From: a virus
Taxonomy: Duplodnaviria > Heunggongvirae > Uroviricota > Caudoviricetes
Virus record (IMG/VR): IMGVR_UViG_2778261393_000002
Reading direction: 5' to 3' (one strand)
Length of the DNA: 29,964 nt
Every line of letters starts with the position of its first letter. Positions within the stretch are counted from its first letter, which is position 1. A model generated the notes under the pieces. It was not told the origin of the DNA. It did no database searches and saw nothing but the letters and a program-made list of their open reading frames with translations. The position numbers were made by a program, and so were the translations under genes. Positions 1 through 17,445 of this stretch are shown one piece after another.

Positions 1-355
1 CTGCCCGGTAAATTTCTCACGAAACTGAATGCGGTTAAGGTCGGTAAGTGACAGGTTAATCATGGCGCACCTCCTGGCGAATACGGGCGGCGAATACCAT
101 CACGCAGCCAGCCGGAGATTGCTGGCGTGCTTCCTGTTCGTTGGTGGCCTCAATGGTAATCACGCGCGGCTGTGCCGTGCTCAGGGCGATAAAACGCCAG
201 ATGTATTTATTCAGGTTGTGCGAGTCCCGCCCTTGCGGGTGTGTGGTATGATTTCTCATAGCTACCTCGATACTGTTGCTATCGTTGGTGGTTAGAAGCC
301 CCGTTACTGCTCCAACAGTGCGGGGTTTCGTCGTTTCTGTGCCTTGCATCAACAA

Positions 356-439
356 GGTGTAAGACACAATGTAAAATAACGGTGTCTTACACGTCAACCC
401 TTCAAAATAATTTTTTTTCGTGTATATTGTCTTACACCA
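356..439 (+). promoter_or_regulatory. Operator-like triple motif and putative promoter upstream of small gene 459..638
   Basis: GGTGTAAGACAC at 356-367, with reverse-complement copies GTGTCTTACAC at 382-392 and TGTCTTACACC at 429-439. The third copy overlaps a TATATT -10-like hexamer at 423-428. AAGGAG SD at 447-452 precedes the ATG at 459. Confidence 0.4.
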
Positions 440-458
440 AAAACATAAGGAGTTAGAC

Positions 459-638
459 ATGGCAACAGGTCCAAAGAATGCAAAATCACAATCTGTAACT
501 GCACGTATTGCCCATGAAATTATTGAAGGCATGGAAAAAGTGAAAGAAGAAGGCGAAAGTACAGGACAGTTTATAAGCGCAGCCATGCGTGGCGAGATCA
601 AACGCCGCCAGCGCCGCCAGGCCAAAGAATCAGAATAA
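459..638 (+). CDS. Small basic protein, 59 aa, function unknown
   Basis: ATG at 459 is 7 nt downstream of AAGGAG. Translation MATGPKNAKSQSVTARIAHEIIEGMEKVKEEGESTGQFISAAMRGEIKRRQRRQAKESE has a basic C-terminal tail. Family not recognised. Confidence 0.5.
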   Translation: MATGPKNAKSQSVTARIAHEIIEGMEKVKEEGESTGQFISAAMRGEIKRRQRRQAKESE

Positions 639-647
639 AAACAACCT

Positions 648-664
648 GCGCCGTGGTGTGAGGA
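648..664. repeat. 17-bp direct repeat GCGCCGTGGTGTGAGGA, copy 1
   Basis: Exact 17-mer, 10 nt after the stop of ORF 459..638. It can pair with CCGGCGC at 668-674 to form a hairpin. Confidence 0.6.
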
Positions 665-695
665 ACTCCGGCGCATTGCTTTACAGGTACACAGA

Positions 696-890
696 ATGAC
701 CAACAAAGAATCAACCAATACACCATCACCGGCACGGAAAAGACGGCGCAGAAAGATAGAGCATGAATCAGAAAGATTCGCGCCATGTGCTTTTGCCCTT
801 GAGCAATTCCTTAAAGAGTACAGGCGCACAAAAATGGGGTCGCATACCTGGAAAACATCACGACATGGTGATGTTGAAGAGCAGAAATAA
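696..890 (+). CDS. Hypothetical small basic protein, 64 aa
   Basis: Open frame with ATG start and weak SD. Its stop is followed by the second copy of the 17-bp repeat. Coding status uncertain. Confidence 0.25.
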   Translation: MTNKESTNTPSPARKRRRRKIEHESERFAPCAFALEQFLKEYRRTKMGSHTWKTSRHGDVEEQK

Positions 891-899
891 CCACTATCA

Positions 900-916
900 G
901 CGCCGTGGTGTGAGGA
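900..916. repeat. 17-bp direct repeat GCGCCGTGGTGTGAGGA, copy 2
   Basis: Exact second copy, 252 bp from copy 1, again about 10 nt after a small-ORF stop codon (890). Confidence 0.6.
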
Positions 917-1561
917 TCCATGGCACAAAGAAGTATCCAAGAGAAAAATGATGGACGCACAGAAACTAGATATACTCACCTCCTTTCTGGAAGAACGTAA
1001 ACGAAAATGGGGGATAAAACCCCATCCTTCCACCAGAGAATTACCAAGAGCATCAACAGAGTGTTTTTTGCTTGAGGATTTCATCAAAAAGAGCAGCCCT
1101 GTTTTGTGCAGGAATAAGCGATACAAGTAATCATTACCCACTCCAGGCAACAGGGAAAAAATTCCGCTAAAGCTTTGCCCACCAGCCGCAAATGTGGCAT
1201 TGTTGGTGATGCTCATGCGTTGGGGATAACGTGTAGCTTGTGTTGAAGGGCCACCGTAGCGGGTGGCCTTTGTTTTGCCTGTTATCCGGCAATTGTGGCG
1301 CTTCGTCACACGGTTGATATAATCCCACTGCTCAGATTCATTTTTTGCGCAGTAGGTTAATTGTTCACAAAGGCGCTCCGGCAACGGGGCGCTTTTTGTT
1401 TTTACCCACCAGCACAATAAAAATCTTCATTTTCCATTTTTGTAAAATTTCATGCTTTCCGGACGGCTGACCATATATCATTTTTTAGCAGAAGATTTTG
1501 CCTTGCTGGTGGGTAGCTTCCCGGTTAACACGATGTACCGTATAATCAGCACTGCGAGTGG

Positions 1562-2140
1562 TTACTGAATACGCTCACCAAAGTAAAACTCATGCTGATA
1601 TTCACGTATCAGCCTTTTTTCTTCTTCCTCCAGCTCACGCTTTTTGCGCTTACATGCCTGTAGCTCCCTCCCCTTCTCGCTGGCACTTATCTGATATTGC
1701 TCTTTACGGCGGGAAAAATCCTGTAATGCGCCCCACGGGATACCATAAGCCCCCGTTTTTCTGATACCCGGTATCACATTTCTGAATACCCAGTTACTGA
1801 AACGATGGGCGAACGTGCCAGGCGTCGTTGCTTTGCGGCTACGGGCTATTAGTTTGTAGAAACCTGACTCGCATACAGTTCGCATTGTTTGATTTCCGCC
1901 AAGGGTGGGTATTAAACACTCCCCCTTTTCATCATCATCGAGACGGCGTAACGCAACCTTGTGATCAACAATTTCCAGCGCAGCGCACACGTCAACTGCA
2001 ACAAACCACGGATCGCCGTTCAGATACACCACGCGAACGTTCACACCATCAAAGCGCAGAACGACCAGATCACGAATATCACAGAATTTTTTTACTAGAC
2101 GAGCGTCACCTTTGCCCGTCACGGCAATATTTTTATTCAT
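1562..2140 (-). CDS. Bro-N domain protein, phage antirepressor-like
   Basis: 192-aa ORF. N-terminal region (VRVVYLNGDPWFVAVDVCAALEI ... ESGFYKLIARSRKATTPGTFAHRFSNWVFRNVIPGIRKTGAYG) has the conserved Bro-N pattern. C-terminus is a charged coiled-coil-like tail. Confidence 0.7.
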   Translation of the reverse strand: MNKNIAVTGKGDARLVKKFCDIRDLVVLRFDGVNVRVVYLNGDPWFVAVDVCAALEIVDHKVALRRLDDDEKGECLIPTLGGNQTMRTVCESGFYKLIARSRKATTPGTFAHRFSNWVFRNVIPGIRKTGAYGIPWGALQDFSRRKEQYQISASEKGRELQACKRKKRELEEEEKRLIREYQHEFYFGERIQ

Positions 2141-2158
2141 CGCTTTTTACCTCACATA

Positions 2159-2183
2159 CAAAAAACCCCGCATTGAGCGGGGC
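2159..2183 (-). terminator. Rho-independent terminator downstream of alpA
   Basis: Stem CCCCGC (2166-2171) and GCGGGG (2177-2182) with 5-nt loop, followed on the minus strand by a T-run (plus-strand AAAAAA at 2160-2165). Confidence 0.6.
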
Positions 2184-2199
2184 TGTGTTTATCTCCTGG

Positions 2200-2466
2200 T
2201 TATTGCTGTTTTGTTTTTTCCGGTTTCCATCCTGGGTGCCAATCGCCACGGATCCACGCCTGAATCTCCGAGAGACGATAGCCAGCGGCACGTTCACCAA
2301 TCTTAATACGTTTTGGGAACTTACCTGTCTTTTCCAGTTTCCAGCGTGTTGAATTTGCCAGCGTAGTAAGTGCCACGCATTCTTTTTCACGAATGACACG
2401 ATCAATATCCGGCATTGCAGTAAAATCTTTTTCATCAACAAGTGAATAAACTGACATATCAAACAA
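2200..2466 (-). CDS. alpA: AlpA-family phage transcriptional regulator, excisionase-like
   Basis: Translation contains DRVIREKECVALTTLANSTRWKLEKTGKFPKRIKIG, typical of AlpA/Vis-type winged-helix proteins. Sits immediately downstream of and overlapping the integrase stop. Exact start uncertain (M1, M4 or M18). Confidence 0.75.
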   Translation of the reverse strand: MFDMSVYSLVDEKDFTAMPDIDRVIREKECVALTTLANSTRWKLEKTGKFPKRIKIGERAAGYRLSEIQAWIRGDWHPGWKPEKTKQQ

Positions 2467-3700
2467 CCTCTTTACTCAGTTCAATAACGTTATTATTAAA
2501 TCCGGCTATCGTGTTAAGGTAATTAACCCACATATTAAGAACCTCAAGTTTTTTCTTTACATGCTTGCTTTTATTATAAACACCCGCCACACCTTTAACT
2601 TTATGACCAAGCAGAAGCTCTACAATATAAGGATCGGCACCCATATCGTTAAGCATTGTTGAAAATGTACGCCTGAAATCATGTATGCACCACAGACCAT
2701 TTACATCATGCCCTAGCCGCCTGCATATCCGGCTTGCTGCTCCTGTTATTGTCGCTCGCTTCAGTGATCTACCGATAACACAATCCCGGTGCTTTGTTTC
2801 CGCATAAAGATTAATAACCCATTGTTTTATTCCATCAGGGACTGGTCTTACAATAACCTCGCCGTTCTTGCTGTGCTCTTTTGGAACTGTCCAAATCCAG
2901 TTTTTTAAATCCCATTCTTCCCAAGTGGATAACCGCGCCTCCTGCTGACGGCAACCAAACACCAGGCAGATAACCATAATTCTTCGGTTATGTATTGATG
3001 AAAGGGTAAGTAAATTGTTGCCATAGGCATAAGACCATACGTCAGCGGCTTCATTAATACTCAGAACACGATCCCTTATGCCTGCTGAACGTCCAACATA
3101 ACTAACGTTAATATCACCGAATGGATCGCAACTAATGTATTGCCTGATACGGCAAAAACGTAACGCCTGTTTAATATCAAGAAAAATAGCACCAGACATA
3201 ACAGGAGCATTTTTTTTAATTCTGTCAAATACAGTAAGCCAGGTATGCAATTTGCACTGTTCTATAGCCATATCTCCGATATATGGAAAAATATGCTTTT
3301 CAAATCTTTTTATTAAATACTCATGCTGCTTTCTGGCTGTCCTGGCGTGATTATCGTACCAGTAAAGCACCGCATCCCTTACAGTTACAGGGCGCATGTT
3401 TTTTTCAGCTACAAGTTTTATTTGTCTGCGAGGATCCAGATTTTCCGCCAGCCATTCACGGCACTGGTCGCGTAATCTCCTGGCGGCTGCCAGAGACATA
3501 TCAGGATAACGCCCAAGGGTCAGCCATACCGGAGGGGCATCCCTGCCGCCAATACGATAGTAAAAAACGAAACTAATTCCCCCAACCACGCTTACACGAA
3601 CAGATAGCCCCCGCCCATCAGCCATGATTTTTTGTCTGTCCTGCGGCTTACCTGCAAGACTTTTCAGAAGTTTGTCAGTCAGTTTATTCTCGATAGCCAT
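2459..3700 (-). CDS. int: Tyrosine integrase, P4-like
   Basis: 413 aa from MAIENKL (start codon 3698-3700). Phage-integrase catalytic region visible (HDFRRTF ... LLGHK ... VYN). Paired with alpA as in P4-family elements. The listed ORF extends 24 codons further upstream to 3772. Confidence 0.85.
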   Translation of the reverse strand: MAIENKLTDKLLKSLAGKPQDRQKIMADGRGLSVRVSVVGGISFVFYYRIGGRDAPPVWLTLGRYPDMSLAAARRLRDQCREWLAENLDPRRQIKLVAEKNMRPVTVRDAVLYWYDNHARTARKQHEYLIKRFEKHIFPYIGDMAIEQCKLHTWLTVFDRIKKNAPVMSGAIFLDIKQALRFCRIRQYISCDPFGDINVSYVGRSAGIRDRVLSINEAADVWSYAYGNNLLTLSSIHNRRIMVICLVFGCRQQEARLSTWEEWDLKNWIWTVPKEHSKNGEVIVRPVPDGIKQWVINLYAETKHRDCVIGRSLKRATITGAASRICRRLGHDVNGLWCIHDFRRTFSTMLNDMGADPYIVELLLGHKVKGVAGVYNKSKHVKKKLEVLNMWVNYLNTIAGFNNNVIELSKEVV

Positions 3701-3718
3701 ATGTAGCCTACACGTCAA

Positions 3719-3772
3719 TTTGCAATACACACCCCATCCAAACGCCAACTTGCAATACACATTGCAATACAC
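3719..3772. repeat. Three direct copies of TTGCAATACAC upstream of the integrase start
   Basis: Copies at 3720-3730, 3750-3760 and 3762-3772. The last two are tandem with a 12-bp period. They lie about 20-70 bp upstream of the int start codon. Confidence 0.6.
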
Positions 3773-3849
3773 AAAACCGCGAAAAACACGAAAGGTAATG
3801 AACGGTCATCATAAATACAAAAAACGACATTCCAGACATATCAAGGGTT

Positions 3850-4716
3850 TTAGTGGAGTTGATGAATGGTGGCGACAACTACGGGGAGATAATAGACATA
3901 AATGGCGCGAACCACCGCCGACTGCAGTTGCGTGGCCTGCAGTGTGTCGAGCATCTTGAGACGCTCCATTACAGAATAAAACTGGTTGGCCCCGCGGGTC
4001 TGCCCGTCTTCCTGTGGCTGAAACACATGGATCATTCCCGGTCGTCCGGAAGGCAGTGTTGCCGTAATTCGTGTCCATTTACTGACACCGTAGCCGGGCC
4101 AGTCATCATCCTGAACATGGTAGGCCAGCGCTTTTCCGTGTCGGTTTATTTCCACCCCGGCACGCATAAAACGATCGCCGGTACCATAACCGGGTGTACT
4201 GACACGCTTCGGGCTGATGGTTTTGAATTTCGTCCGGAATAATGACGTGGATTCCGCATCCCATACGGGCTGGACAAAAATTTCACCGTTAAACGTATGG
4301 ACCCCCACCCCTTCACGAATGAATTCGGTAAACGAACGACGCCCTTCCACATCCATCGTACCAAACACCGGATCGCAGTATTCCATCCACGCCGCCTCAA
4401 CATCTTCAATAAAAGCATGTGAATCTGCTTCCGACATCCCCAGCCAGCGCCAGTTGGGACGGTAACTCAGACGAAACATGTGCCCGACAATATGATCCTT
4501 ATGAATTTCCACTGCATTCGATGCAATACCGTTGTTACGGACCAGCTCATCCGCGCGGGCGTTACCCAGATGAATGGAAGGTAAGAGCGCCACGTCGGCA
4601 CTTTCCGGTGCAGGCAGCCATTCTGCCATTTGCCCACCGAACCCGGAACCACCACCAGAATATCCCATGCTTTGCCGTAAAGGCTGCCCATGAATATCCA
4701 CCAGTTCCCCGTTCAC
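3850..4716 (-). pseudogene. B: Lambda-like portal protein (gpB), N-terminal fragment only
   Basis: 288-aa ORF co-linear with the lambda gpB N-terminus as I recall it (YSGGGSGFGGQ, LLP..GNARADELVRNNG, LFRTKFKTISPKRVSTP, IHVFQPQEDGQTRGANQFYSVMERLKMLDTLQATQLQSA). Similarity ends near residue 271 (about nt 3900). Lambda gpB is about 533 aa, so the C-terminal half is missing. Confidence 0.8.
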
Positions 4717-4925
4717 AGCCCCACTCCTGCCGGGCCACGACGCCGTCCGGATACACCCAGCGCACTTTCCAGCTCTTCAATATACTGACGCAGTTCACCA
4801 ATTGTCGCCCGCGAATACTGAACCTGACGCCCGTCCTTGCTGACGGAAACCACAGCACGTCCGATCATCAGTTCATGTAACGCCCGGCGGGCATCGCATA
4901 GCATTTCATGCGTATAAATCATCAC
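4713..4925 (-). CDS. W: Head-tail joining protein, lambda gpW-like
   Basis: 70 aa. ARRALHELMIGRAVVSVSKDGRQVQYSRATIGELRQYIEELE ... RRRGPAG matches the lambda gpW pattern. Position between terminase large subunit and portal as in lambda. Confidence 0.75.
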   Translation of the reverse strand: MMIYTHEMLCDARRALHELMIGRAVVSVSKDGRQVQYSRATIGELRQYIEELESALGVSGRRRGPAGVGL

Positions 4926-6845
4926 TTATCCTCCACTCAGAGCAGCCGCGATTTCTTCAATAGTCATTTCATCGTCGTCCTGTTCATCTCTTCTGGCGCG
5001 GGCCAGTGCATCCAGATCCAGTTGCCACCGCTGAACGGAAATGCGCAGCGCTGCATAGGCATACACCAGACAGTCCAGAGCTTCATTACGCCGTTTTCTG
5101 GCATCCCACTGGAGTTTCACCCGCCCGTTCACAACTTTTTCAACCAGCTCTTCTGCCACGAGTTGTTTAGCTTCAACATCAGAAAAAATGTCCGGGTTAT
5201 CCGGAAAACGGAAGGTATACGGTGCGACTTCACTGGCAGATACCACCGGCAGGGCAAAACGCGCATACAGCATTTCCTTGACGGTATCGGAACCCACCTC
5301 ACACAAAAACACCCCACGCTGGTTTCGCTTTTTTGGCATGGTGATCACCGGCTTGCCGTACACCGACGCCCCTTTGATGGGGAGCACAAAAAAAGTGCCG
5401 TGTTTTCTGGATCGCTGATACACAATGTCCTGGTCAATACCACCGGTATCCCAGCAGACGCGGGAAATGGAAATTTCAGTGCCATCTGCATGACGGTATT
5501 TTTTCCGGATCACGGCATCAACGCGTTTAAGGGTGTCCTCATCTTCCGGTCTCCCCATGATGATCTGCTTGTCAATCAGAAAAGCTTCTTCGCCAGGAGC
5601 CCAGCCCCAGACATAAATCTCATAACGGTTTTTCTGAGAGTCGATCCCTGCGGTCAGGTAAACCACCCGCAGGGGAACCTGCGCATCATAGTGGCAGACT
5701 TTTTCCAGCAATAACTCAAAGCTCAGTTTTTCTGCCACAGCCTCTTCATAAGGCTCCCCCAGCGTGGTGTTAATGAACGTCTTGACGCCATTCGGATCCT
5801 TCAGTGCATCAAGCCAGTCATAAACAATCTGTACCCAGGTGGTGAACGGGCTGTATGCCGTCCAGATGTGGTACGAGATTGAGCGCGGTGGCGGGATTTC
5901 CTCATCACCGGCGCTGTAAAATGTCAGACCGTCACGCGTCCACATCCCGGTATTGTCACAAATCCACCGCCCGTCGGTCTGGTCAAGTTCCGACTGACGG
6001 ATCGCGCAGCCATTATGTTCACACAGGTAATACACCGTCTCCGGCTTGCCCTTCTCCCATTTCAGGCCAAAGGTTGTCGCATCATCGCCAAACTTCAGAT
6101 ACTGGGCTTCACCACAATGAGGGCATGGCACATAAAACCGCATAAAATGTGCAGATTCGTTCGCGGCTTTTTCAATCTGGCAAAAACCTTTAATTTTGGG
6201 CGTTGAGCCGCGTATGGATTTAGGCCATACCGAACCTTCGATACGCTTATCGCCAAGCAGAGTTGGTGAACCTTCTTTTTCCACATCCGGTTCAAACGAG
6301 GAGAGTTCGTCATAGCAGACCACATCCACAGATTTTTCACGGTAGTTTTTGGCAGCAGCTCCGCCCAGACACCAGAATCCCACACCGGAGGAGAAACGTT
6401 TCAGGGTAAGCGTGTTGTCCCGATGTTTTCTGCCAAACCACGGAGCCAGCTCCAGTAATACAGGAACGTCTCTTATCGTTGGTTCGACATGGGATTTCAT
6501 AAAATCTTCTGCCGCAGAATCTGTCGGCTGAAAAAGCAGGCTGTTACGGGATTTGTGTTCAATAAAATAAGCCTCCACCCCCAACAGCATTTTGGTGTAA
6601 CCAACACGCGCCGATTTAATCAGATTAACGGTGCGGATCCGGTCATTCCCCATGCTGTTCATGATGGCAACCTGAAACGGCAGTGTTTCCCATTGCCCGG
6701 GAGTATATGAAGACTCTTTTGGCAGATAATAATGCTGATCAGCCCACTGAACTGTCGTCAGTGGTACCGGAATATTGAGAGATACAAGCCCTGTTGCTAT
6801 CGCACCGGCTGCATTAGCTGCCTTCTGTGCGTCTGAAATCATCAA
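4926..6845 (-). CDS. A: Terminase large subunit, lambda gpA-like
   Basis: 639 aa, co-linear with lambda gpA along the whole length ([94 protein letters not shown]). Confidence 0.95.
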
Positions 6846-7362
6846 TCCACCCGCCTACGTTCTCACCAGCTTTAGCTGCAACGTTGGAGGCTTTTGCGAT
6901 TTCAGTTTTCACCACATCAAGGTGTGACGGTGAAATATCCGGATATTTACGCTGTAATGTCAGCGGCACACGTACAAGTATCCCCGAAATCTCCTGTGCC
7001 ACACGTTGCAGAATGAAGGTAAACAATTCCGTTTCCAGTACCAGCCCTTCTTCGCGGGCATTTTTCAGTTCCTGTGCATCAGCCTGTGCTTTTGTGAGTC
7101 GGTAGCGCTCATAGTCAATGGTGCCGGGTTGTAAATCTGATTCCGCAGCCGCACGCAAATCCTCGGTCTCTTTGCGGAGTTTTTCGTTTTCAATATCGGC
7201 TTCGCGCTGCGCATACCACTGAATTGCCATGGCGGTATCAAATACAGATTCAACCCCCTTACTACCACCAGAGACACAAGAGAGCCCCTGAGACTGCCAG
7301 CGTTCAATCGTTCGTGGATCCACGTTGAAAATTTCCGCGAGCTTCTTTTTATTAACCTTCAT
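6814..7362 (-). CDS. nu1: Terminase small subunit, lambda Nu1-like
   Basis: Start taken at [12 protein letters not shown] (codon 7360-7362), matching the lambda Nu1 N-terminus MEVNKKQLADIF. Conserved stretch [27 protein letters not shown]. The 3' end overlaps the terminase large-subunit start. Confidence 0.9.
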
Positions 7363-7387
7363 AAAACATTTCCATATCAAATGCAGG

Positions 7388-7440
7388 GTCCGACATGGAA
7401 GTGCTCAAAAACGTCTTTTTCGGGCACTTTCATGTCGGAC
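7388..7440. repeat. 53-bp palindrome between cos and the Nu1 start
   Basis: Perfect 10-bp arms GTCCGACATG (7388-7397) and CATGTCGGAC (7431-7440) with partly self-complementary interior. Lies in the cosB-equivalent region. Confidence 0.6.
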
Positions 7441-7500
7441 CTTTTACGGATGTGATTGATGAAAAAACAATGAGTTATACACGAGAAGTACCGACACGCT

Positions 7501-7560
7501 TTTTCCCGAAAAATTTTCATAAATAGCGAAAATCCGCGCCGCTGCCGCCCCGTGGCAGAC
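7501..7560 (-). other. Cohesive end site (cosN/cosB-like)
   Basis: Minus-strand sequence GGGGCGGCAGCGGCGCGGATTTTCGCTATTTATGAAAATTTTTCGGG closely matches the lambda left end GGGCGGCGACCTCGCGGGTTTTCGCTATTTATGAAAATTTTCCGG as recalled. cosN analogue at about 7539-7550, upstream of Nu1. Confidence 0.75.
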
Positions 7561-7905
7561 CACCCCACCGGAAGGACCCGTACAAATAGAGTTATTATTA
7601 ATTACATTTACAGTAGGAATGATGTACATCATTGAAACACCATTCAGTCATATACCGACAGCATTCGGTGTTGCACTTCATAACTCTGCGACTACGGTTA
7701 TAAAAGCATTGGCTACTTTTGCCACCGGCAAATCTTCAATGGATTTCCCCTGCCGGTTTTTTATTTTCATCGATGCATAACATTGCTTTTACATCAATAG
7801 CAGCTATTGTCAGTAGTATGTTGTATCGATGCATGGGTGGTATTGGCGATCTTCGCCGACCGGTTCTGTGTAGCTCCCTATGACCGGTTTTTTTATTTCT
7901 AAGAT

Positions 7906-7940
7906 TATAGAAGTCCTTCACTGTATGAAGGACTTCTATA
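7906..7940. repeat. 35-bp perfect palindrome
   Basis: TATAGAAGTCCTTCA (7906-7920), loop CTGTA, TGAAGGACTTCTATA (7926-7940). 15-bp perfect arms. Preceded by a T-run (7889-7895). Confidence 0.7.
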
Positions 7941-8045
7941 ACGCTTCTTACTTTGTAATTTTCGCACCTTCCGGTAATTCCATAGGTTAAAAAAACCTCA
8001 TAATCTCTGACAATTTGATCCTACCCACGTAATATGGACACAGGC

Positions 8046-8912
8046 CTAAGCGAGGTTCTGGTTTTCAAATTGTTCCGGACTGAGGCCGCCACACCAACTG
8101 TGCCGCCGCCACCGATTGTAATCACATTCGATATAATTAAACACCGTTGCCCGCATTATTTCCCGGCTGATAAAGTGTTCTCCATGGATACATTCCACTT
8201 TCAGCGAATGAAAGAAGCTTTCCACGCAGGCATTATCGTAGCAGCAACCTTTTGCGCTCATACTTCCACGCAGATTATGCCGCTTCAGTTGCGCCTGATA
8301 ATCTGCTGAACAGTACTGGCCTCCACGGTCCGTGTGAACGATAACGTTCCAGGGCCTCTTACGCCGCCACAGCGCCATCTGCAGGGCATCGCAGGCCAGT
8401 TGCGCCGTCATGCGTGGCGACATTGACCAGCCAATAACGGCACGTGACCACAGGTCAATGACCACTGCCAGATACAGCCAGCCTTCATCTGTACGTAAGT
8501 ACGTGATGTCTCCTGCCCACTTCTGGTTCGGGCCACTGGCGTAAAAATCCTGCTCCAACAGATTTTCTGACACAGGCAGGCCGTGTGCGCGGTAGCTGAC
8601 CGGGCTGAACTTCCGGGAGGCCTTTGCCCTCAGTCCCTGACGGCGCAGGCTTGCCGCCACGGTTTTTTCGTTAAAGGGGTAACCCTGAGCACGCAGTTCA
8701 TCCGTCAGGCGTGGGGCACCGTAACGCTGTTTTGACCGGGTAAAAGCCGCGAGGACAACGCTGTCGCAGTGTTGGCGGAACTGCTGACGCGTGCTTATCC
8801 TTGTCCGCCGCTGACACCACGTATACCAGCCGCTGCGGGCCACCCGGAGCACGCGGCACATTGCTTTGATGCTGAACTCAGCCTGATGTTTTTCAATAAA
8901 GACATACTTCAT
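8046..8912 (-). CDS. insF: IS3 transposase OrfB
   Basis: 288 aa with DDE transposase/integrase core (WAGDITYL ... HTDRGGQY ... [11 protein letters not shown]). Matches IS3 InsF as remembered. Confidence 0.95.
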
Positions 8913-9217
8913 TTCAGGCGCTTCGCGAAGTATGTCGCGGCCTTTTGGAGGATAGCCAGCTCTTCATCCCGTTCTGCCAGCTGGCGTTTGAGACGTGCAA
9001 TCTCGGTAGACATCTCCAGTTCACGTTCAGAAGACGTCTGCTGATTTTGCTGTTTACTGCGCCAGTTGTAGAGCTGTGATTCATACAGGCTGAGTTCACG
9101 GGCTGCGGCAGTAACACCGATGCGTTCAGCAAGCTTCAGGGCTTCACTGCGAAATTCAGGCGAATGCTGTTTACGGGGTTTTTTACTGGTTGATACTGTT
9201 TTTGTCATGTGAGTCAC
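8909..9217 (-). CDS. insE: IS3 transposase OrfA (HTH)
   Basis: 102 aa ending in a leucine-zipper-like segment. Its stop overlaps the orfB ATG in the -1 frame, as expected for IS3-family programmed frameshifting. Confidence 0.95.
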
Positions 9218-9370
9218 CTCTGACTGAGAGTTTACTCACTTAGCCGCGTGTCCACTATTGCTGGGTAAGATCAATTATCATCCACACAGGATAAAGACAT
9301 CTGACCAGATTGCAGTATTAAAAGCTCTCATGCAGACTACGCACCCCATATCATATACAAGGTTATACTG

Positions 9371-9781
9371 ATGGCTCAGGTTGCCCTTTTTAAAGAAATA
9401 TTTGATCAAGTGCGGAAAGATTTAAACTGTGACCGATTTTACTCTGAACTAAAACGTCACAATGTCTCACATTACATTTACTATTTAGCCACAGGTAATA
9501 TTCACGTTGTATTGAAAAATGATAACGCAGTGTTAATAAAAGGACTTGAGGAGGTTGTGAATGTTAAATTTCGCAGAGACACGCGACTTATAGAAACTTA
9601 CTCTCATAAGTTGAAATCAAGAGAAATCACATTTCATGAATACAGGGAAAATCTGGCTAAGGCTGGAGTTTTCCGATGGGTTACAAATGTCCATGAACAC
9701 AAAAGGTATTACTATACCTTTGACAACTCATTATTGTTTACCGAAAGCATTCAGAACACGACACAATTTTTTCCACGCTAA
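9371..9781 (+). CDS. DUF1398 / YbcV-like prophage protein
   Basis: 136 aa ([47 protein letters not shown] ...) closely resembles DLP12 YbcV as recalled. Upstream of and co-oriented with bor. Confidence 0.7.
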
Positions 9782-10005
9782 ACCATATCGCCCGGTTTAA
9801 TCCCCCTCACTATCCGGCACTCCCACACAGGAGTTACCAGTCGGTACTGAGGACATAGTTAATCCGGGAATACAATGAAAATACAGCACATCTGGCATAC
9901 TTTAATAAACATTAAAAATATGAGATTTCAACTCATTGTTTAGGTTTTGTTTAAATTTCTACAAATACGATTCAACAACCTTAAAAACACAACGGGAATA
10001 ACACT

Positions 10006-10299
10006 ATGAAAAAAACGCTACTCACTTTCACGCTGGCCCTGCTTATCTCTGGATGTGCTCAACAGACGTTTACTGTTGAAAACCAACCGACAACAGTAAC
10101 ACCGAAGGAAACCATCACTCATCATTTCTTCGTTTCTGGAATTGGTCAGAAGAAAACTGTCGATGCAGCCAAAATTTGTGGTGGCGCAGAAAAAGTTGTT
10201 AAGACTGAAACCCAGCAAACATTCGTAAATGGATTGCTCGGTTTTATCACTTTCGGCATTTATACTCCGCTGGAAGCTCGGGTATATTGCTCACAATAA
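10006..10299 (+). CDS. bor: Bor lipoprotein (serum-resistance lipoprotein)
   Basis: 97 aa with signal peptide and lipobox LISGC. Sequence near-identical to lambda Bor/BorD as recalled. Convergent with the lysis genes as in lambda. Confidence 0.85.
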   Translation: MKKTLLTFTLALLISGCAQQTFTVENQPTTVTPKETITHHFFVSGIGQKKTVDAAKICGGAEKVVKTETQQTFVNGLLGFITFGIYTPLEARVYCSQ

Positions 10300-10307
10300 T
10301 ATCATAA

Positions 10308-10329
10308 GTTGCCCATCTCGATGGGCAAC
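10308..10329. terminator. Perfect 10-bp stem hairpin after bor
   Basis: GTTGCCCATC TC GATGGGCAAC at 10308-10329, 9 nt after the bor stop. No strong T-run, so terminator function is uncertain. Confidence 0.45.
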
Positions 10330-10616
10330 TCTATCTGCACTTGATGCGCAAATAACAACCTCCAAAAGAAAAATAGCAAAAGCAGACCGTGTCACATAAA
10401 GACGTGCAGTTACTTTCTTTTCTATTCCTTTCATAACAGACGGCTTTAAAAGAAGATTTATACGATCTGCCGAGGATTTTTCTCTGTACTCACTGATTCA
10501 TATTCTCCTCTTTGTTTGGTATAAAAACCGAACTCTTTCTCCAGTCGTTTTTCTTGTTCGGTAAGTCTAATAACAAGCTAACCGCAGGTTGGATTTACTG
10601 GCCTCATTAATGCCAA

Positions 10617-11162
10617 CTACACCACCACGCGCTCTTTCATCCAGCCATACACGAACGATTCATTAGCCTCACGTTTTTCTGCCAGTTCAAGGTAGCGATC
10701 TCCCTGCGTACAGTTTAGCGCTGTCAGAATCACCAACTCACCATCCCTGCCACGTTTTGACAAATAGGCGCGTAACGCATTAATGGTACGTGGGCCGATA
10801 CAACCATCTGCATCAATGTCCGGATACAACTCTCCTTTCTGGTTAAATACATTAAGCCAGCGCTGAAGCATTCTGGATGCCACTGACGGCCCCATGTTTA
10901 CGCCGGTATCACACAATTCAGCAGCGATCTCCGGAGACAGGCTCGCAACCTTGTGAAAACGTGGCCCGTACCAGTAGTCCGCTTCAAGAATTTCGAGGGC
11001 CTGCCCACGCGTCAGGTCACGAATATCCCCCTGATAACCGTGTGCACGGGCAACTTTTCCAGTAATGCCCCATTTAGTCGGACCACCTTTATCATCAGGG
11101 TGGTTGACGTAGCCGCCCTCTTTGCCAAGAACAGCATCAAAAATTTCATCTTTCGACTTCAT
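10617..11162 (-). CDS. Endolysin, GH108-type lysozyme with peptidoglycan-binding domain
   Basis: Start taken at MKSKDEIF (codon 11160-11162). Motif LGKEGGYVNHPDDKGGPTKWGIT is characteristic of the GH108 N-terminal domain. Follows two holin-like genes. Confidence 0.75.
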   Translation of the reverse strand: MKSKDEIFDAVLGKEGGYVNHPDDKGGPTKWGITGKVARAHGYQGDIRDLTRGQALEILEADYWYGPRFHKVASLSPEIAAELCDTGVNMGPSVASRMLQRWLNVFNQKGELYPDIDADGCIGPRTINALRAYLSKRGRDGELVILTALNCTQGDRYLELAEKREANESFVYGWMKERVVV

Positions 11163-11163
11163 C

Positions 11164-11442
11164 TCAGCGCCTTCGTAATACAAAGATTTTTGAAACGTTC
11201 CCACGAGCACGAACCACCAGCACGCAGAACAGCAGGTTAAAAAACACTTCCAGCCAGCCCGTTGCTAACGGGCGACCACACAGATAGCTGAGGGGCGCAA
11301 AGGCATACAGCAGCATCAGCAACCAGGCCAGCCATGACATCAGCGGTTTATGTCTGGAATCACGACGACGATAAAAAAAGAGCGTCAGCACGATAACCGT
11401 GCATAACGCCACATTCAGCAATCCGGGAAGGTTACTTAACAT
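11164..11442 (-). CDS. Holin or antiholin-like small membrane protein
   Basis: 92 aa from MLSNLPGLL with 2-3 predicted hydrophobic helices and a basic C-terminus. Located between a holin-like gene and the endolysin. Confidence 0.55.
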   Translation of the reverse strand: MLSNLPGLLNVALCTVIVLTLFFYRRRDSRHKPLMSWLAWLLMLLYAFAPLSYLCGRPLATGWLEVFFNLLFCVLVVRARGNVSKIFVLRRR

Positions 11443-11824
11443 TGCCGCCTCCTCCACCCCGCAGGCGGGAGAACAGGCCGGACACCAGCGATGCAATATC
11501 CTGCTGGTGGATGAACGAGAGAATCTTCACCGACACCACCGCCACCAGCACCGCACACAGAGCATCCGCCGATGTACCGTCATAACCTGTTTTTGATGCA
11601 ATCCAGGCTGACAGCACATGCGCACCCAGCACGCCAACGATAAACGACACCAGAAAATGCGCTGCCACACGCCAGGCAGATAGTGCCTGCGGCATTGTGG
11701 CCACAAACAGCGCCCCGGCAAATGCGCCAAACACAATCCCGAAATCCGTTCCGGTAAACAGCCCGAATACCGTCGCCCCGCCGAGCGCCGCAGCCGTGCC
11801 GGAACCGGATAAGGGTTCAGACAT
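11432..11824 (-). CDS. Putative holin, multi-TM membrane protein
   Basis: 131 aa from MSEPLSGSG (SD GGAG upstream) with several Gly/Ala-rich hydrophobic helices. First gene of the lysis cassette. Confidence 0.6.
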   Translation of the reverse strand: MSEPLSGSGTAAALGGATVFGLFTGTDFGIVFGAFAGALFVATMPQALSAWRVAAHFLVSFIVGVLGAHVLSAWIASKTGYDGTSADALCAVLVAVVSVKILSFIHQQDIASLVSGLFSRLRGGGGGNVK

Positions 11825-12003
11825 ACTTTTTCTCCTGTAAATAAAAAAGGGCCACTGTCGGCCCGTAAAAAAACAACACCCCGTCAAAGGCACCCGCAGA
11901 TACCTTTTGTGTGGTGTTATCTGATGTGATGTGCGCCGGACGTGGCGCGGATATAAAAAAGGCCCGCCGCAGCGAGCCTGTTTTCAATGAGTGCAAAATT
12001 CAA

Positions 12004-12747
12004 TTATTCTTGAGTAACACTTAAACTCATCTCATTGAATGCAGCCATCCTGTAACCTGCCGGTGTAACACCAAAATAACTCCTGAATACGCTGATAAAA
12101 TAAGATGTAAAATTATAGCCACACTGAGCAGCGATTCTGTTGATGGCGCAACGAGATTGATTCAACAGCATTGCTGCCATTCTCATTCTCTCTGTAAGCA
12201 ACAACTCACTGAAACAGGTGCCTTCTTCTTTCAGTCTTTTTTTTAACAAACTTTCACTGATACATAACCGCGAAGACACATCTCTCAGAGTCCAGTTTGC
12301 TGCAATGTCCGTACGAAACAATGCACTAAGCCTGTCACTAATATTGCCAATACACGCGGTCAGAAACGACGAAAACATTTTCTCTGATGAGAAAAACGCC
12401 AGACACGAAAAGGAAAGCATTTCCGCTAAATTGTCCGTATGAATCTTTTCCTCACAAAGATAATCAATCAGGATGCCCATCAATTCTGCCTTGGGAAAAC
12501 TCACGCAAAGATATCGTGGTATTTGCCGGACTAAAACTACATCCTGTTTTTCGTCTCCACACAACAGGTAACGGATAATTGTCGATTCACTGAGACTTAT
12601 TCGCCGAAAACATTCCGAAAAGGGCAATAACGATCCAGCTCCCCCCCTGACAAGAAGTGCACTACCACTTTCCAGAGAGAGCTCTTTTCCTTCAAAGAGC
12701 ACAACAAACGGGGAATGAACAAAAACAACAGAACAAGCTTCATTCAT
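12004..12747 (-). CDS. AraC-family transcriptional regulator, AppY/GadX-like
   Basis: C-terminal AraC HTH signature (SESLLKKRLKEEGTCFSELLLTERMRMAAMLLNQSRCAINRIAAQCGYNFTSYFISVFRSYFGVTPAGY). N-terminal CSVVF motif shared with DLP12 AppY as recalled. Start taken at MNEACSVVF. Confidence 0.8.
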   Translation of the reverse strand: MNEACSVVFVHSPFVVLFEGKELSLESGSALLVRGGAGSLLPFSECFRRISLSESTIIRYLLCGDEKQDVVLVRQIPRYLCVSFPKAELMGILIDYLCEEKIHTDNLAEMLSFSCLAFFSSEKMFSSFLTACIGNISDRLSALFRTDIAANWTLRDVSSRLCISESLLKKRLKEEGTCFSELLLTERMRMAAMLLNQSRCAINRIAAQCGYNFTSYFISVFRSYFGVTPAGYRMAAFNEMSLSVTQE

Positions 12748-12969
12748 ATCAATTGCCCTGACATTACTGGTCACAAGATAAGTATATATCGATTTACAAA
12801 AATACAAGCCGAAAGACCAGTATTCGCAACCACCAGCGCGTTTAACGTCCTGTACCGTTTTTCAGGCATAAAAAACCCGCTCAGTGGCGGGTTTAAGCTG
12901 TTTGGCGTAGTAACCACTCTTAACAGGATATTCAACTTTTTACGATCGTAAAGCGTTCGGGGAAAATTT

Positions 12970-13458
12970 TTAAAACCGTTCCAGAGTGCATACCATCGCA
13001 TCGGCGGGTAGTTTTTCCGTGAAGTCGACCTGACCGTGTTTATCGAAGTGGATCAGTAATGCGCATCCATCATTTTGGGTTGGGGTGTTTTGTGCTGCTG
13101 GTGGTTGTTTTTGGCTGAAATAACAGTCTTCCAGTTTTTCGAACACTTCCCACGCCTGATCGGTTTCCAGCATTTTGGCGTGACGGGCTGCTCCGCGTTC
13201 TGTCCAGAGGATGAGGTGCTTTGTACGCGGTGCAACTAAGTTACTTTGAGTAACCTTGTTCTTAAATTCCCGCAACTCAGCCCCTTCCAATTTGAAGTAG
13301 TGTTTCCCACAAACAAAACGCTCGGCATTGCGTGTATAGTTCACTTTGATGTTATTAGTTTCGGTGCCATAAAGTTGTGCCAAAAGCTCGGTAGTAATGA
13401 CAGGGATTTGGTTATGGGTGATCGGGGAAAGAGTTTCAACTGAGATTTGAATAGCCAT
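12970..13458 (-). CDS. ORF6N-domain DNA-binding protein, antirepressor-like
   Basis: 162 aa. N-terminus (ITTELLAQLYGTETNNIKVNYTRNAERFVCGKHYFKLEGAELREFK) fits the ORF6N/KilA-N-like pattern. SD AAGGA upstream. Confidence 0.6.
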   Translation of the reverse strand: MAIQISVETLSPITHNQIPVITTELLAQLYGTETNNIKVNYTRNAERFVCGKHYFKLEGAELREFKNKVTQSNLVAPRTKHLILWTERGAARHAKMLETDQAWEVFEKLEDCYFSQKQPPAAQNTPTQNDGCALLIHFDKHGQVDFTEKLPADAMVCTLERF

Positions 13459-13612
13459 AGGATGATCCTTTTTCTATGTGAATCATCACCACTGCTGACG
13501 CCAATCAGTATGGTGGTGAACTGTGCAGGGTTGGCGTAACCGGGAAAAAGGAACCGGCGCGGATCGCTCCGCCCCCACACAGCCCACCATTGAGATGTGA
13601 CAGTGCAAACGA

Positions 13613-13637
13613 CAATAAAAAAGACGCTGGCGCGTCT
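13613..13637 (-). terminator. tR'-like Rho-independent terminator downstream of Q
   Basis: Stem AGACGC (13622-13627) and GCGTCT (13632-13637) with 4-nt loop, then a U-run on the minus strand (plus-strand AATAAAAA 13613-13620). About 95 nt downstream of the Q stop, as expected for a late-promoter leader terminator. Confidence 0.5.
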
Positions 13638-13731
13638 GTTGTCGCCTTTTTCATCCGGGACGCCAATCCCGACGCCAGATTTTGCTGGCGCGTGAGGAAT
13701 ATAGCCCCGGACAATGTGTCTGGTCAAGCTC

Positions 13732-14127
13732 CTACATGATTCGTTCTACGTATCTGTCCATCTCCAGTCGGATATCAAGCATCATCAACATGCCATCAAT
13801 AACCCCTTCCGCTTTCTGCAGGCGCTTGCCAATACAGGTATCCGAACACCCATGCTTTCGTGCCAACCCCATAAAAGTCATTCCACCTACGTAATAATCC
13901 ACCAACAAATCGTGCAAATCCTGATTTTTCTTGTTCAACCGGGCCATACAGCCACAAATTATCATTGCATCATCATCAGAACACTGAGGGCGTGATTTCA
14001 CTTTCGGCGGGATTAATCCTTTAAAACCAGCAGCGATTGACGCCCATGACACATCTTCGTGATTGTTCGCAGCCCATGCTCCCCACCGCTCCATAACCTG
14101 CTGAATATCACGCACCATCGTTATCAC
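13732..14127 (-). CDS. Late-gene antiterminator Q (QuuD / phage 82 family)
   Basis: 131 aa ([60 protein letters not shown] ...) closely resembles DLP12 QuuD as recalled. Start may be M1 or M4. Confidence 0.8.
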
Positions 14128-14485
14128 CTGTAATTTCGTAAATCTTCACGCCCAACCGCCCACCAGGAACAGGCAGTCCGCGCACAATATTGATTTCATC
14201 AAACTGCTCGTCGTCTATAAGTAGTCCGGCATGCGTCAGCGCATCCAGTGGTGCCTTCAGGATATTGTCCAGGTCGCGGCGGCGCTTATCCGGTGGCTCT
14301 GCAATAATTTTTATTGCCAGCCTTCCGGACAGGTTTAATTTCAGTCGCTGCTGGCGAACAATAAGCGCCACATCACGGCGATAACGCTCACCGGCTTTTG
14401 ATACAAAATATGTGCTGCCACGACGTCGCCAGTAGGTATTCACCGTCGGCGGGTAAGGCAAAACAAATTCTATGCGTTCAGTCAT
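14108..14485 (-). CDS. rusA: Holliday junction resolvase RusA
   Basis: 125 aa with RusA pattern ([31 protein letters not shown] ... GGRLGVKI). Confidence 0.85.
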
Positions 14486-15616
14486 TCATGCTTTCCACTT
14501 CAGGACACCCGAATTTCTCGCGTGCATTAAAAAACGAATCAGCAACAACAGCTGGCTGCCGTGTTTTTCTTCAAAATCTTTTACCCCGGCGTGCAGTTCG
14601 TTATGACATTTACGGCACAGCGGAATAACAAACAAATCATCAGCCTTTGTTCCCATCCCTCCCTGACCGTGACCAATCAGGTGATGGGGATCGTCGGCTG
14701 GTTGACCACAACACGCACACGGCTGTGTCTTCACCCAGCGCGTATATTTCTCATTTACCCAACGGCGACGTTTAGGTCGCCTCATGAAAGATTCCGGAGA
14801 CTCCGGATCAACGGTGATGCATACCACCGTCTTTTCCTGTGATGGGTTTTGTTGCTGGTGGGCGTGAGGCAACGGTGCAAGATTTTTTGTGCGCTGTTTC
14901 AATATGCTGGTGGCGGTCTGCTCTCCCGGTACGATGTCGCTTTCGCGGTACACCGAGCAGTTTTTTTCCGCTGGTAATCCCAGCGAGCGACGTAATACCG
15001 CTTCCGGTAGCGCGTCCGCCACCTGATTGCGGACCGCCCACCAGGATAATTCAGCCAGAGATAATTCACGCTCCTGCGTACCGCTTATTGCGTGACCGAT
15101 GACGTCAATCATCCATGCTGACAGGTTTTGATGAGCAAGCTGCCCGAGTGATTCGGATGTCTGGTCACGCAACTGGTTGTCGCAGTGCCAGCACAACACC
15201 ATCGCGCCGGTACCGTAACGATGTATGACGATTTCACTGTGATGATAGTCACCATGAGGCCACTGGCAGGATTTGACATGACGCAACAGCCAGTCAGACA
15301 GTGCCCCAGCGCCGCCAGCAGCACGAATCACCCGCTCATCGCTGAAAAATGGCAGTAATGATTTATCCTCCGCCAGCGGCTGGCGAACGGCAGGGACGAC
15401 TCCGGACGGCAGACCGCGCATGCTTTTCGGTTCAGGCTCCACCAGCACTCGAGGGTTATGAAATACTTGCATGGATTCACGGCCCGGCCTAAGGACCACC
15501 AGCCCAAGTTCCGGTACCAGAACAGGTCGAAGTAATATCCGCACGTTACCTCCAGATCCGTTGCTGGTATGTGCGGGATGGGCGCGGTGGGCGTTCGGAA
15601 TAAGGGAGCCTGACAT
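14486..15616 (-). CDS. DUF968-domain protein, YdfU-like
   Basis: C-terminal Cys/His-rich domain (CACCGQPADDPHHL ... IPLCRKCHNELH) typical of DUF968 proteins in lambdoid nin regions. N-terminal start uncertain (M1 at 15616 overlaps the upstream ORF; alternative Met at 15472). Confidence 0.7.
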   Translation of the reverse strand: MSGSLIPNAHRAHPAHTSNGSGGNVRILLRPVLVPELGLVVLRPGRESMQVFHNPRVLVEPEPKSMRGLPSGVVPAVRQPLAEDKSLLPFFSDERVIRAAGGAGALSDWLLRHVKSCQWPHGDYHHSEIVIHRYGTGAMVLCWHCDNQLRDQTSESLGQLAHQNLSAWMIDVIGHAISGTQERELSLAELSWWAVRNQVADALPEAVLRRSLGLPAEKNCSVYRESDIVPGEQTATSILKQRTKNLAPLPHAHQQQNPSQEKTVVCITVDPESPESFMRRPKRRRWVNEKYTRWVKTQPCACCGQPADDPHHLIGHGQGGMGTKADDLFVIPLCRKCHNELHAGVKDFEEKHGSQLLLLIRFLMHARNSGVLKWKA

Positions 15617-15824
15617 AGATTATCCAGTGACGATAATCGAGGCTGAGGGCTTTCTTAATCTCGTATCCGCGTCTGCGATAGTTATGAATTAGCCATTCGG
15701 CCTGTTCTTCAGTACATGGGTCATGCTGGAACCAGTCAGATTTGAAAGTGCGGGAACGCCGCCCGCGCCTGCTGGCAAAGACGGCAGAATCATCAGAATT
15801 GTGTAATTTGGTATCGTGCGCCAT
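15546..15824 (-). CDS. Small prophage protein, possibly Rem-like
   Basis: Start taken at MAHDTKLH (92 aa), so that it does not overlap the terminator at 15895-15921. Positional analogue of rem between ydfU and hok in K-12 Qin. Weak SD. Confidence 0.3.
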   Translation of the reverse strand: MAHDTKLHNSDDSAVFASRRGRRSRTFKSDWFQHDPCTEEQAEWLIHNYRRRGYEIKKALSLDYRHWIIYVRLPYSERPPRPSRTYQQRIWR

Positions 15825-15894
15825 CGGTTGTCTCTGCTGGCGCAGCAGGTGCCAGTTGTTCAGGCTGGCGTGCGAATTGTAAACCAGAATGCCA

Positions 15895-15921
15895 GGAAAA
15901 AACAAAACCCGCCGAAGCGGG
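15895..15921 (-). terminator. Rho-independent terminator, UUCG-loop hairpin plus U-run
   Basis: Minus strand reads CCCGC UUCG GCGGG followed by TTTTGTTTTTT (plus 15895-15921). Confidence 0.5.
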
Positions 15922-16120
15922 TATGCTAAAACAAACTGAAAGTAATATACCGGACTTGTAAAGGAACGATAGAATAATTATTGGATTAAACCCTGACTCA
16001 ATCCAGATTTCATAGGCAACAACTACGGACTAATCATCACAGTCATGTTTGATAGGCTTAGTCCACATTGGGTGAGGGTTTACGGCGTTTTCACTAATAA
16101 TTTATCGTCCAAGCTATACA

Positions 16121-16513
16121 CTACTGCCCTGTTTTAACGAAGTTTTTAAAGGAAACAACTGCCTGATAGGGGTTTGGTTGACAGCCAAACATATTATCGC
16201 AAAAAGGCTTGATGAAAATTCTTGAGGATCCATCTTCATTTGGCATTTTACTCACTTGATAAGCGAGGAATGGACTATTTGGAGAGGGATTATAAGTGGA
16301 AATTAGCGTGTCTGTCGCCGTTTGAATTTTCCATGAGGAATTATTAGCCAACCAGAATTGCGCTCGTTTCCAATAAAAGTCACATTGCTTTTCATCATTA
16401 CATGTTAGTGGCTTCATTGCTTCTGCTTTCAACGCTGGATCGACCTTTGCTGCACACCCTCCCAACATTACTGTTGCAATCATTACACCTGCGACTAAAA
16501 CAAGTTTCTTCAT
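16121..16513 (-). CDS. Lipoprotein of unknown function (moron)
   Basis: 130 aa with signal peptide and lipobox (MKKLVLVAGVMIATVMLGGCAAK). Mature part has four Cys. Flanking DNA looks AT-rich by eye. Confidence 0.65.
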   Translation of the reverse strand: MKKLVLVAGVMIATVMLGGCAAKVDPALKAEAMKPLTCNDEKQCDFYWKRAQFWLANNSSWKIQTATDTLISTYNPSPNSPFLAYQVSKMPNEDGSSRIFIKPFCDNMFGCQPNPYQAVVSFKNFVKTGQ

Positions 16514-16656
16514 CTCCCTGCCCCATCAATAAAAGTTCGGTTCTCTAATAACTAGAGTTAATCAACGGAAAAAACGCCGAAGCGGGTTAAGTGCGGGTGC
16601 GTTGAGGATGCCTGACACATCAGAGGTGGCGAGGGATTTCTCCCCCGCCAGGTCTC

Positions 16657-16812
16657 TTACTCCTCAGGTTCGTAAGCTGTGAAGACAGCGACCTCCGTCT
16701 GGCCGGTTCGGATTCGTACCTCGCAGAGGTCTTTCCTCGTTACCAGTGCCGTCACAATGACGGTTAAACAGATGACGATCAGGGCGATTAACATCGCCTT
16801 TTGCTGCTTCAT
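16657..16812 (-). CDS. hokD: Hok/Gef-family type I toxin
   Basis: 51 aa MKQQKAMLIALIVICLTVIVTALVTRKDLCEVRIRTGQTEVAVFTAYEPEE with AAGGAG SD, matching HokD/RelF as recalled. An overlapping upstream frame (to 16869) is the mok-like reading frame. Confidence 0.85.
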   Translation of the reverse strand: MKQQKAMLIALIVICLTVIVTALVTRKDLCEVRIRTGQTEVAVFTAYEPEE

Positions 16813-17023
16813 AGCCTGCTTCTCCTTGCCTTTCGGCACGTAAGAGGCTAACCTAGATTTGCCGTTCATAGATTGAGCCTCAGATTAATGTTAAGCGTCT
16901 TGCAGGACGCGTAATGTTAACTGGGGCTTTTCTCTATCTGCCTTTGGTGTTCATGCCTGAGACAGATAGCCTCAAGCACCCGCAGCCATTCTACTTAACT
17001 CCCGTTACCTCGCCAATATAAAA

Positions 17024-17113
17024 TCAATCAGAAAGGCGATCCATAAGAACAACAGCAAGACAATAAATTGCCATTACAGCTGCAATAGCCAGCGCACATT
17101 TGAGAACCAGCAC
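17024..17113 (-). CDS. Candidate small hydrophobic peptide, 29 aa
   Basis: Perfect SD AGGAGG (plus 17119-17124), 5 nt spacer, GTG start (17111-17113). Translation (M)LVLKCALAIAAVMAIYCLAVVLMDRLSD is one transmembrane helix plus a short charged tail. Not in the supplied ORF track because it is under 60 aa. Confidence 0.3.
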   Translation of the reverse strand: MLVLKCALAIAAVMAIYCLAVVLMDRLSD

Positions 17114-17399
17114 GACAACCTCCTGTATTGGACGTACACCAGTCCTGATAAATATGAGGCTGTCTCATCATTGATGAGATACAACTATTGGGTATAGTTT
17201 CTGTGATTTTGTTCTGTAGAAATGGAACACAACAACCAGTCACCACCAGCACTTCTTTAAATACGCCAAGTCCGACGCAAGCTAACCTTCTAGTCCGCTT
17301 TGAGCGAGAAGCGGGCCTTTCGACAACCATATTTAGATGAATAGTGGGCTAGGAATACTTTAGCAATTACATTGCTAATATCAATATAAGTAGTAGATT

Positions 17400-17433: not shown

Positions 17434-17445
17434 ATTGCAAATAAA

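Follow-up and report, generated by a model that had tools for sequence, protein, structure and literature searches.

The first 3901 nucleotides of the window, by which we mean the whole 29,964-nt stretch of DNA analysed here, are very probably the integrase-proximal end of a satellite of about 10.8 kb, a portal-site helper-embedded PICI (HE-PICI) carried by a lambdoid prophage resident at potB. The abrupt junction in the portal gene is the left attachment site of this satellite, which is inserted site-specifically into the portal gene of its helper. Judged from its flanks and gene directions, the insertion is conservative, site-specific and co-oriented with the late operon. HE-PICIs were described by Tommasini, Mageeney & Williams 2023 (NAR Genom Bioinform 5:lqad036, PMC10111431), whose 491 mapped examples fall at 14 sites in cognates of lambda late genes. 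The window belongs, as a further isolate, to their site group B:Phage_portal_2:241 and is in this sense already known; since the site group, the att core and the potB helper were catalogued in 2023 (PMC10111431), it is one more instance and brings no new biology. The features of the window are collected in Table 1.

Table 1. Features of the satellite, the junction and the helper prophage (positions in the window)
Feature	Position (nt)	Strand	Basis or remark
Satellite part in the window (integration and Bro zones)	1-3901	-	Comparison with relatives
Icd-like cell-division-inhibitor gene	56-331	-	NF033153
YlcI/YnfO family gene	420-638	+	NF041551; opposite orientation
Bro-N domain protein (anti-repressor-like), satellite Bro zone	1562-2140	-	Pfam
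GC-rich hairpin and T-run between alpA and the Bro-N gene	2164-2184	-	Candidate terminator/attenuator; pattern match only
alpA (Phage_AlpA regulator/excisionase-type)	2200-2466	-	Pfam; overlaps int stop
Tyrosine integrase, 413 aa, P4-type	2459-3700	-	Pfam Arm-DNA-bind_3 and Phage_integrase
Doubled motif tgTGTATTGCaatgTGTATTGCaa (written TGTATTGCAATGTGTATTGC for 3752-3771)	3750-3773	-	Presumed arm-type Int binding site
Helper portal N-terminal fragment (lambda B cognate)	3850-4716	-	Annotated start ATG 4668
attL identity block	3897-3908	-	Reads GCGCCATTTATG in gene orientation; intact-portal flank comparison
gpW	4713-4925	-	Pfam
gpA terminase	4926-6845	-	Pfam
Nu1	6814-7380	-	Pfam
Helper excisionase	28055-28333	+	Confirmed with integrase; lambda-type
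Helper lambda-type integrase	28302-29420	+	Confirmed

The split portal gene and its attachment sites

The ORF at nt 3850-4716 matches Pfam Phage_portal_2 at profile positions 2-242 of 354 and aligns with lambda gpB (residues 18-279). Its last portal-derived residue is A271, equivalent to A276 of lambda gpB, and its final 17 codons and stop (IYVYYLPVVVATIHQLH, then the stop) are satellite DNA. The earlier note on this DNA, made from the letters alone, had seen portal similarity end near residue 271, about nt 3900, which is accurate because A271 is indeed the last portal residue. The breakpoint was to be placed by comparison with intact prophages, and this was achieved: in megablast and blastn searches of complete E. 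coli genomes, nt 3897 is the exact point from which the window is 99.9-100% identical to E. coli N61 over its intact lambdoid portal/terminase region. The ATG of the integrase, nt 3700, is 197 bp from the break. An unrelated module of P4-type int, alpA and Bro-N genes had been noticed within about 200 bp of the break and co-oriented with the late genes; Pfam confirms these genes, all on the minus strand.

The element is bounded by a 12-bp repeat, GCGCCAT(T/G)TATG, in genomes whose identity to the window reaches 99.9%. attB and attR carry GCGCCATGTATG where attL carries GCGCCATTTATG, the contexts being ...GGTTC GCGCCATTTATG TCTATT... for attL, ...TTTCATAA GCGCCATGTATG CCGCC... for attR and ...GGTTC GCGCCATGTATG CCGCC... 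for attB. Because the att sites differ by this single T/G, we infer that strand exchange took place within the 7-bp GCGCCAT, nt 3902-3908, centred on nt 3905. The target codons are R-A-M of the window-type portal, at about position 241 of Pfam Phage_portal_2, and correspond to K275-A276-M277 of lambda gpB. The window ends inside the satellite, and attR and the distal half of the portal gene are therefore deduced from near-identical genomes.

Portal nt 1-1100 lie on the left flank of the element and nt 1089 to the end on its right flank, so that no portal base is lost. Joining the two flanks of one relative (L003) in silico yields a portal ORF of 507 aa with one substitution relative to N61. 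Thus the gene is not truncated and fused, as had been proposed; it is split around a 12-bp repeat, and excision in silico restores the ORF. The search for att core repeats or tRNA fragments at the junction returned the att core at nt 3897-3908 and no tRNA gene in the window. No tRNA or tmRNA att target was found in the window or in the related loci L001, L007 and L008, and no tRNA is involved in the insertion.

A diagnostic doubled motif of the HE-PICIs, tgTGTATTGCantgTGTATTGCa, flanks the attP centre at distances of about 132 bp on the downstream and about 81 bp on the upstream side (PMC10111431). The doubled motif of Table 1 starts 132 bp downstream of the crossover centre and is the single match in the window, against 0.01 expected by chance. 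An upstream doubled copy with one mismatch, in its first half, occurs at about -100 to -77 at the attR end in L003, L004, L007 and L012. A third, single copy sits within the direct-repeat copy at nt 3712-3731.

The attP core covaries with the portal codons of the helper, being GCGCCAT for the window type (R-A-M) and AAGGCGAT for the type found in E. coli EC28 (K-A-M). The comparison was made between window nt 3897-3908 and L001 nt 22420-22440 and 11530-11545, for elements whose integrases are 89% identical. The satellite core thus tracks the codon usage of the helper, since attP and target of the EC28-type element both read AAGGCGAT.

Relatives of the composite and the probable mobility of the element

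By an exact-protein index, the integrase of the window occurs unchanged in 188 index blocks of public assemblies, out of which ten places (L003-L012) were fetched. The element lies within the Nu1-gpA-gpW-portal late operon in nine of the ten, the remaining one, L008, being an off-target copy. Both portal flanks are seen in seven of these nine loci (the right flank of L010 falls outside the fetched DNA). The flanks are otherwise at least 99.5% identical to N61 in six of the seven, and the left flank of L004 is 97.5% identical. Every relative with a readable right flank has the distal half of the portal gene, followed directly by the protease gene C in L003. L007 (CP057879.1) is 99.89% identical to window nt 1-12000, gapless and collinear to the first base of the window. 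The claim that all head and tail genes beyond the portal are absent consequently holds inside the window only. These genes are displaced by about 10.8 kb, past the left edge, where the near-identical genomes continue with the remainder of the portal gene and with gene C.

The element recurs identically in many independent assemblies and several helper backgrounds, and prophages exist that have an empty site and are otherwise 100% identical. The exact composite is absent from 5,426 RefSeq complete E. coli genomes, none of which covers at least 80% of window nt 1-8000; that search yielded diverged EC28-type relatives only. The window-type composite is present in at least 25 GenBank contigs, finished chromosomes included, and the source lineage seems under-represented in the RefSeq complete E. 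coli set. A host other than E. coli, suspected on account of the absence, was rejected in view of the chromosomal flank of L008, which is 99.8% identical to E. coli. EC28 itself contains an 81%-identical relative of the int module in a complete element of about 11 kb at the same portal codon. The host is a different lambdoid prophage, with a portal gene about 71% identical at the DNA level; past the element it continues with the second half of the portal gene, the protease and the whole set of head and tail genes.

A second copy of the satellite, 98.5-99.5% identical, resides in cstA of the same CP057879.1 genome as L007 (L008 nt 9796-20621, with a chromosomal flank 99.8% identical to E. coli). 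Its junctions read ..GATCCCCATTTATG.. at attL and ..AAGCGCCATAAACAG.. at attR. This copy is inserted at a degenerate core (CCCAT) and shares only CCAT and the element side. Off-target chromosomal copies of HE-PICIs have been reported (PMC10111431), and L008 fits the off-target integration expected when the primary site is occupied. To judge from its junctions, the cstA copy indicates activity of the integrase. Neither cstA nor the closest genomes (CP057879 and others) were found in the searched part of the published table (PMC10111431).

An immobile relic, that is, a real insertion that permanently inactivates the portal gene and domesticates the prophage with no excision-coupled switch, is conceivable and yet unlikely. 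The IS3 in the late region of this helper (nt 8046-9217) would agree with it, as would the record of the model system, in which excision, replication and transfer were measured for 11capE, an element of the capsid-gene site, and no virions were recovered even from the 11capE/50icd pair (PMC10111431). On the other hand int, alpA and both att cores are intact, and the integrase sequence is identical across the 188 index blocks. These facts, together with the several distinct helpers, the on-target and off-target copies in one genome and the otherwise identical empty-site prophages, argue for recent mobility.

The earlier note had proposed a deletion or insertion that created a composite of two elements. 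The composite and the insertion stand, and the deletion gives way to conservative integration flanked by a 12-bp repeat. Decay of a cryptic prophage, in which a deletion took the distal portal and the head and tail genes and left an integrase island abutting the stump, is very improbable and was rejected, although no head or tail gene follows the portal fragment inside the window. In seven of the nine relatives that lie within a prophage, the element of about 10.8 kb is immediately followed by the portal half missing from the window, with the 12-bp repeat and without the loss of a base. The protease gene is present in both L003 and EC28, the full head and tail set in EC28, and the collinearity between window and L007 extends as far as nt 1 of the window.

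An assembly error at the junction had been named as what would refute the proposal, and a chimera made of a prophage contig and an unrelated island would be such an error. The abruptness of the junction is all that would speak for it, and it has next to no credibility: the same junction recurs in many independent assemblies, in finished chromosomes and in the attL/attR alignments of the searched part of the published supplement, and the site of the break is a genuine att core whose arm motifs have the right spacing.

Gene content and class of the satellite and its helper

The element measures 10.65-10.8 kb in close relatives, and judged from L007 about 6.9 kb more of it, comprising the replication and late zones and attR, lies beyond the left edge of the window. 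The gene order in the relatives is int, alpA, Bro-N, small ORFs including the YlcI/YnfO and Icd-like genes, DUF4222, an AAA_25 primase/helicase and SSB. These are followed by a lambda-E-type major capsid homologue (Phage_cap_E), a gpD-type decoration homologue (HDPD), a 141-aa protein weakly similar to the C-terminus of a protease, a Nu1-like small terminase-type protein and lastly a 61-aa ORF. Tail, lysis, portal and large-terminase genes are absent from the element in the gene calls of close relatives. By this layout the element is a Gram-negative PICI, and not P4 or a capsid-forming PICI.

Over its full length, the integrase of the window shares 53% identity with the 11capE integrase; to the portal-site integrase of EC28 it is 89% identical. 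The YlcI/YnfO gene holds the same place in the EC28 and 11capE elements. The long ORF at nt 56-1417 is probably non-coding apart from its Icd-like C-terminus; PADLOC, Pfam and NCBIfam scans gave no function for nt 56-1084. Within the Bro zone, nt 640-1560 are gene-poor and strongly A-rich on the plus strand, and two strong terminator-like hairpins are found on that strand (nt 1246-1271 and 1369-1396). P4-type immunity RNA (C4/isrK) is absent from the satellite part at the Rfam gathering threshold, and at E<=1 nt 1-4000 gave only a chance-level match to Trp-leader. As no Rfam family matches, a regulatory RNA of the satellite, if any, is not of the known C4/isrK type.

At the level of sequence, every feature that defines membership in the HE-PICIs was found. 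The element is inside a helper late gene, with the attR side supplied by genomes up to 99.9% identical, and int, alpA and the primase are co-oriented with the interrupted gene, on the minus strand with Nu1-A-W-B'. The integrase is assigned to the 11capE clade by its 53% identity over 413 aa and by the searched part of the published table, in which elements having this att belong to the clade. The doubled motif is present, starting at +132. The four zones follow in order, Integration and Bro in the window, Replication and Late in L003-L012. The site group is identified by the profile end at 242 of 354, by 'gcgccat' and by an identical attR, as given in the searched part of the published supplement.

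That part of the supplementary table lists 'gcgccat' and 'aaggcgat' as identity blocks of the group B_Phage_portal_2_241, and places Eco14386.11.B_Phage_portal_2_241 in the helper Eco14386.58.potB (PMC10111431). The published attR alignment, ...tcttttcataaGCGCCATgtatgccgccacgattgaatcc... in the section searched, is identical to the attR found here (PMC10111431). Within the same portion of the source, the published group and the element of the window agree in target codon, 'gcgccat', attR, size of about 10.8 kb, potB helper, doubled motif and gene order, and nothing of substance differs.

The founding HE-PICI, 11capE in the helper 50icd of E. coli NRG857c (site E:Phage_cap_E:80), resembles the element in its integrase and in the order int-alpA-(Bro zone with YlcI/Icd-like)-DUF4222-primase-SSB-capsid-decoration. 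It differs in its target, the major capsid gene with the core aacccaagca, and in its HEPN/DUF262 cargo, which was not seen in the relatives of the window element. PICIs of the EcCICFT073 type (Fillol-Salom et al. 2018, 2019) often carry a capsid-gene homologue, as stated in PMC10111431, and share the int-alpA-primase layout, the small size and the lambdoid cos helpers (PMC10111431). However, they occupy chromosomal sites and contact the helper in trans only, whereas the present element lies within the helper portal gene. A cf-PICI has portal, large terminase, protease and head-tail connector genes of its own; the relatives offer only capsid-E and decoration-D homologues, a weakly protease-like protein and a Nu1-like one.

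Like P4, the element combines an integrase of the P4 family with a regulator of the alpA type and has a Bro-network gene downstream. The element is without Psu, Sid, Delta and a tRNA target, and its helper is lambdoid and not P2-like; Pfam and PHROG gave no match to Psu, Sid, Delta, epsilon or the alpha-primase. The designation as a P4-like or generic island was accordingly replaced by that of a PICI-type satellite, the P4 type applying to the integrase only. A conventional P4-like or tRNA-targeting island beside the prophage, as the Arm-DNA-bind_3 architecture of the integrase followed by alpA might suggest, can be dismissed almost entirely on gene content and att site, since neither the window nor the related loci contain a tRNA or tmRNA, the att core lies inside the portal ORF, and lambda-type capsid E, decoration D and Nu1-like genes take the place of Psu, Sid and Delta.

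The helper is, as proposed at the outset, a lambdoid prophage with its own int-xis at the other end (nt 28055-29420). In the related genome BCE049 it adjoins potC, corresponding to the potB site. IS3-family transposase ORFs at nt 8046-9217 (minus strand) lie between helper Nu1 and the DUF1398/bor genes in the orientation of the late operon. The same IS is found in N61, L004, L005 and L007, and not in L003 or L006. It might be polar on late transcription or impair read-through in this helper.

Several other helper regions were recognized. At the Rfam gathering level, nt 13509-13704 (minus strand), which lie upstream of the antirepressor/Q region, contain the C4 antisense RNA with its a1/b1 target and isrK, and nt 16807-16981 (minus strand) the sok antitoxin RNA of a hok/sok module. 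Two large genes at nt 17446-18699 and 19313-20452 (both minus strand), between the helper replication/Ren-like genes and hok/sok, lie in a stretch of markedly low GC content (32-39% versus about 50%). They match only PHROG families of unknown function (phrog_27609 and phrog_12525), with no Pfam, NCBIfam or PADLOC match, and may be moron or defence cargo.

Proposed excision and restoration of the portal gene

The published 11capE experiments and their authors' model (PMC10111431) provide the steps of a mechanism for the present composite. Upon SOS induction the whole composite would excise from potB and replicate. Late transcription of the helper would then read via Nu1-A-W-B' into int and alpA. 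A consensus promoter and terminator scan of nt 3700-3900 gave no convincing int promoter or terminator, and the lack of a convincing terminator between the portal fragment and int supports such read-through. The satellite would next excise and rebuild the intact portal gene. The predicted junctions are ..TTTCATAAGCGCCATTTATGTCTATT.. for attP (satellite attP TTCATAAGCGCCATTTATGTCTATT) and ..GGTTCGCGCCATGTATGCCGCC.. for the restored portal attB; the attR predicted left of the window is ..TTTCATAAGCGCCATGTATGCCGCCACG.., with the remaining portal sequence and gene C beyond it. Portal synthesis, and with it the assembly of the helper procapsid, would be put off until the satellite has been released for replication and packaging. 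The gpE, gpD and Nu1 homologues of the satellite probably bias capsid assembly and packaging toward it.

The N-terminal portal fragment, which has 257 portal residues and a satellite tail of 17 residues, might also act by itself. Made from the late transcript before excision, it could be a dominant-negative protein that disrupts the initiation of procapsids, whether of the helper or of lambdoid phages that superinfect. We consider this improbable. The 81%-identical element of EC28 has a satellite-encoded tail of equal length, ending at the same stop position; this agreement may simply reflect DNA-level constraints of the att site. If the proposal were true, the embedded satellite would be an anti-phage device in addition to a timing switch.

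An analogy is offered by the skin element of B. subtilis sigK and by phage phi10403S of Listeria comK, where an element splits a gene, and precise excision restores the gene at a set developmental time. The split gene is the host's in those systems and the helper phage's here.

The satellite inserted into the helper portal gene explains an apparently broken prophage, in which the portal is reversibly split by a hyperparasite and not degraded. For this reason the labels 'portal pseudogene' and 'defective prophage', as given by annotation pipelines, are misleading here. With helper-embedded satellites, the excision of the satellite is coupled in cis to the morphogenesis of the helper, which is unusual as a mode of regulation.
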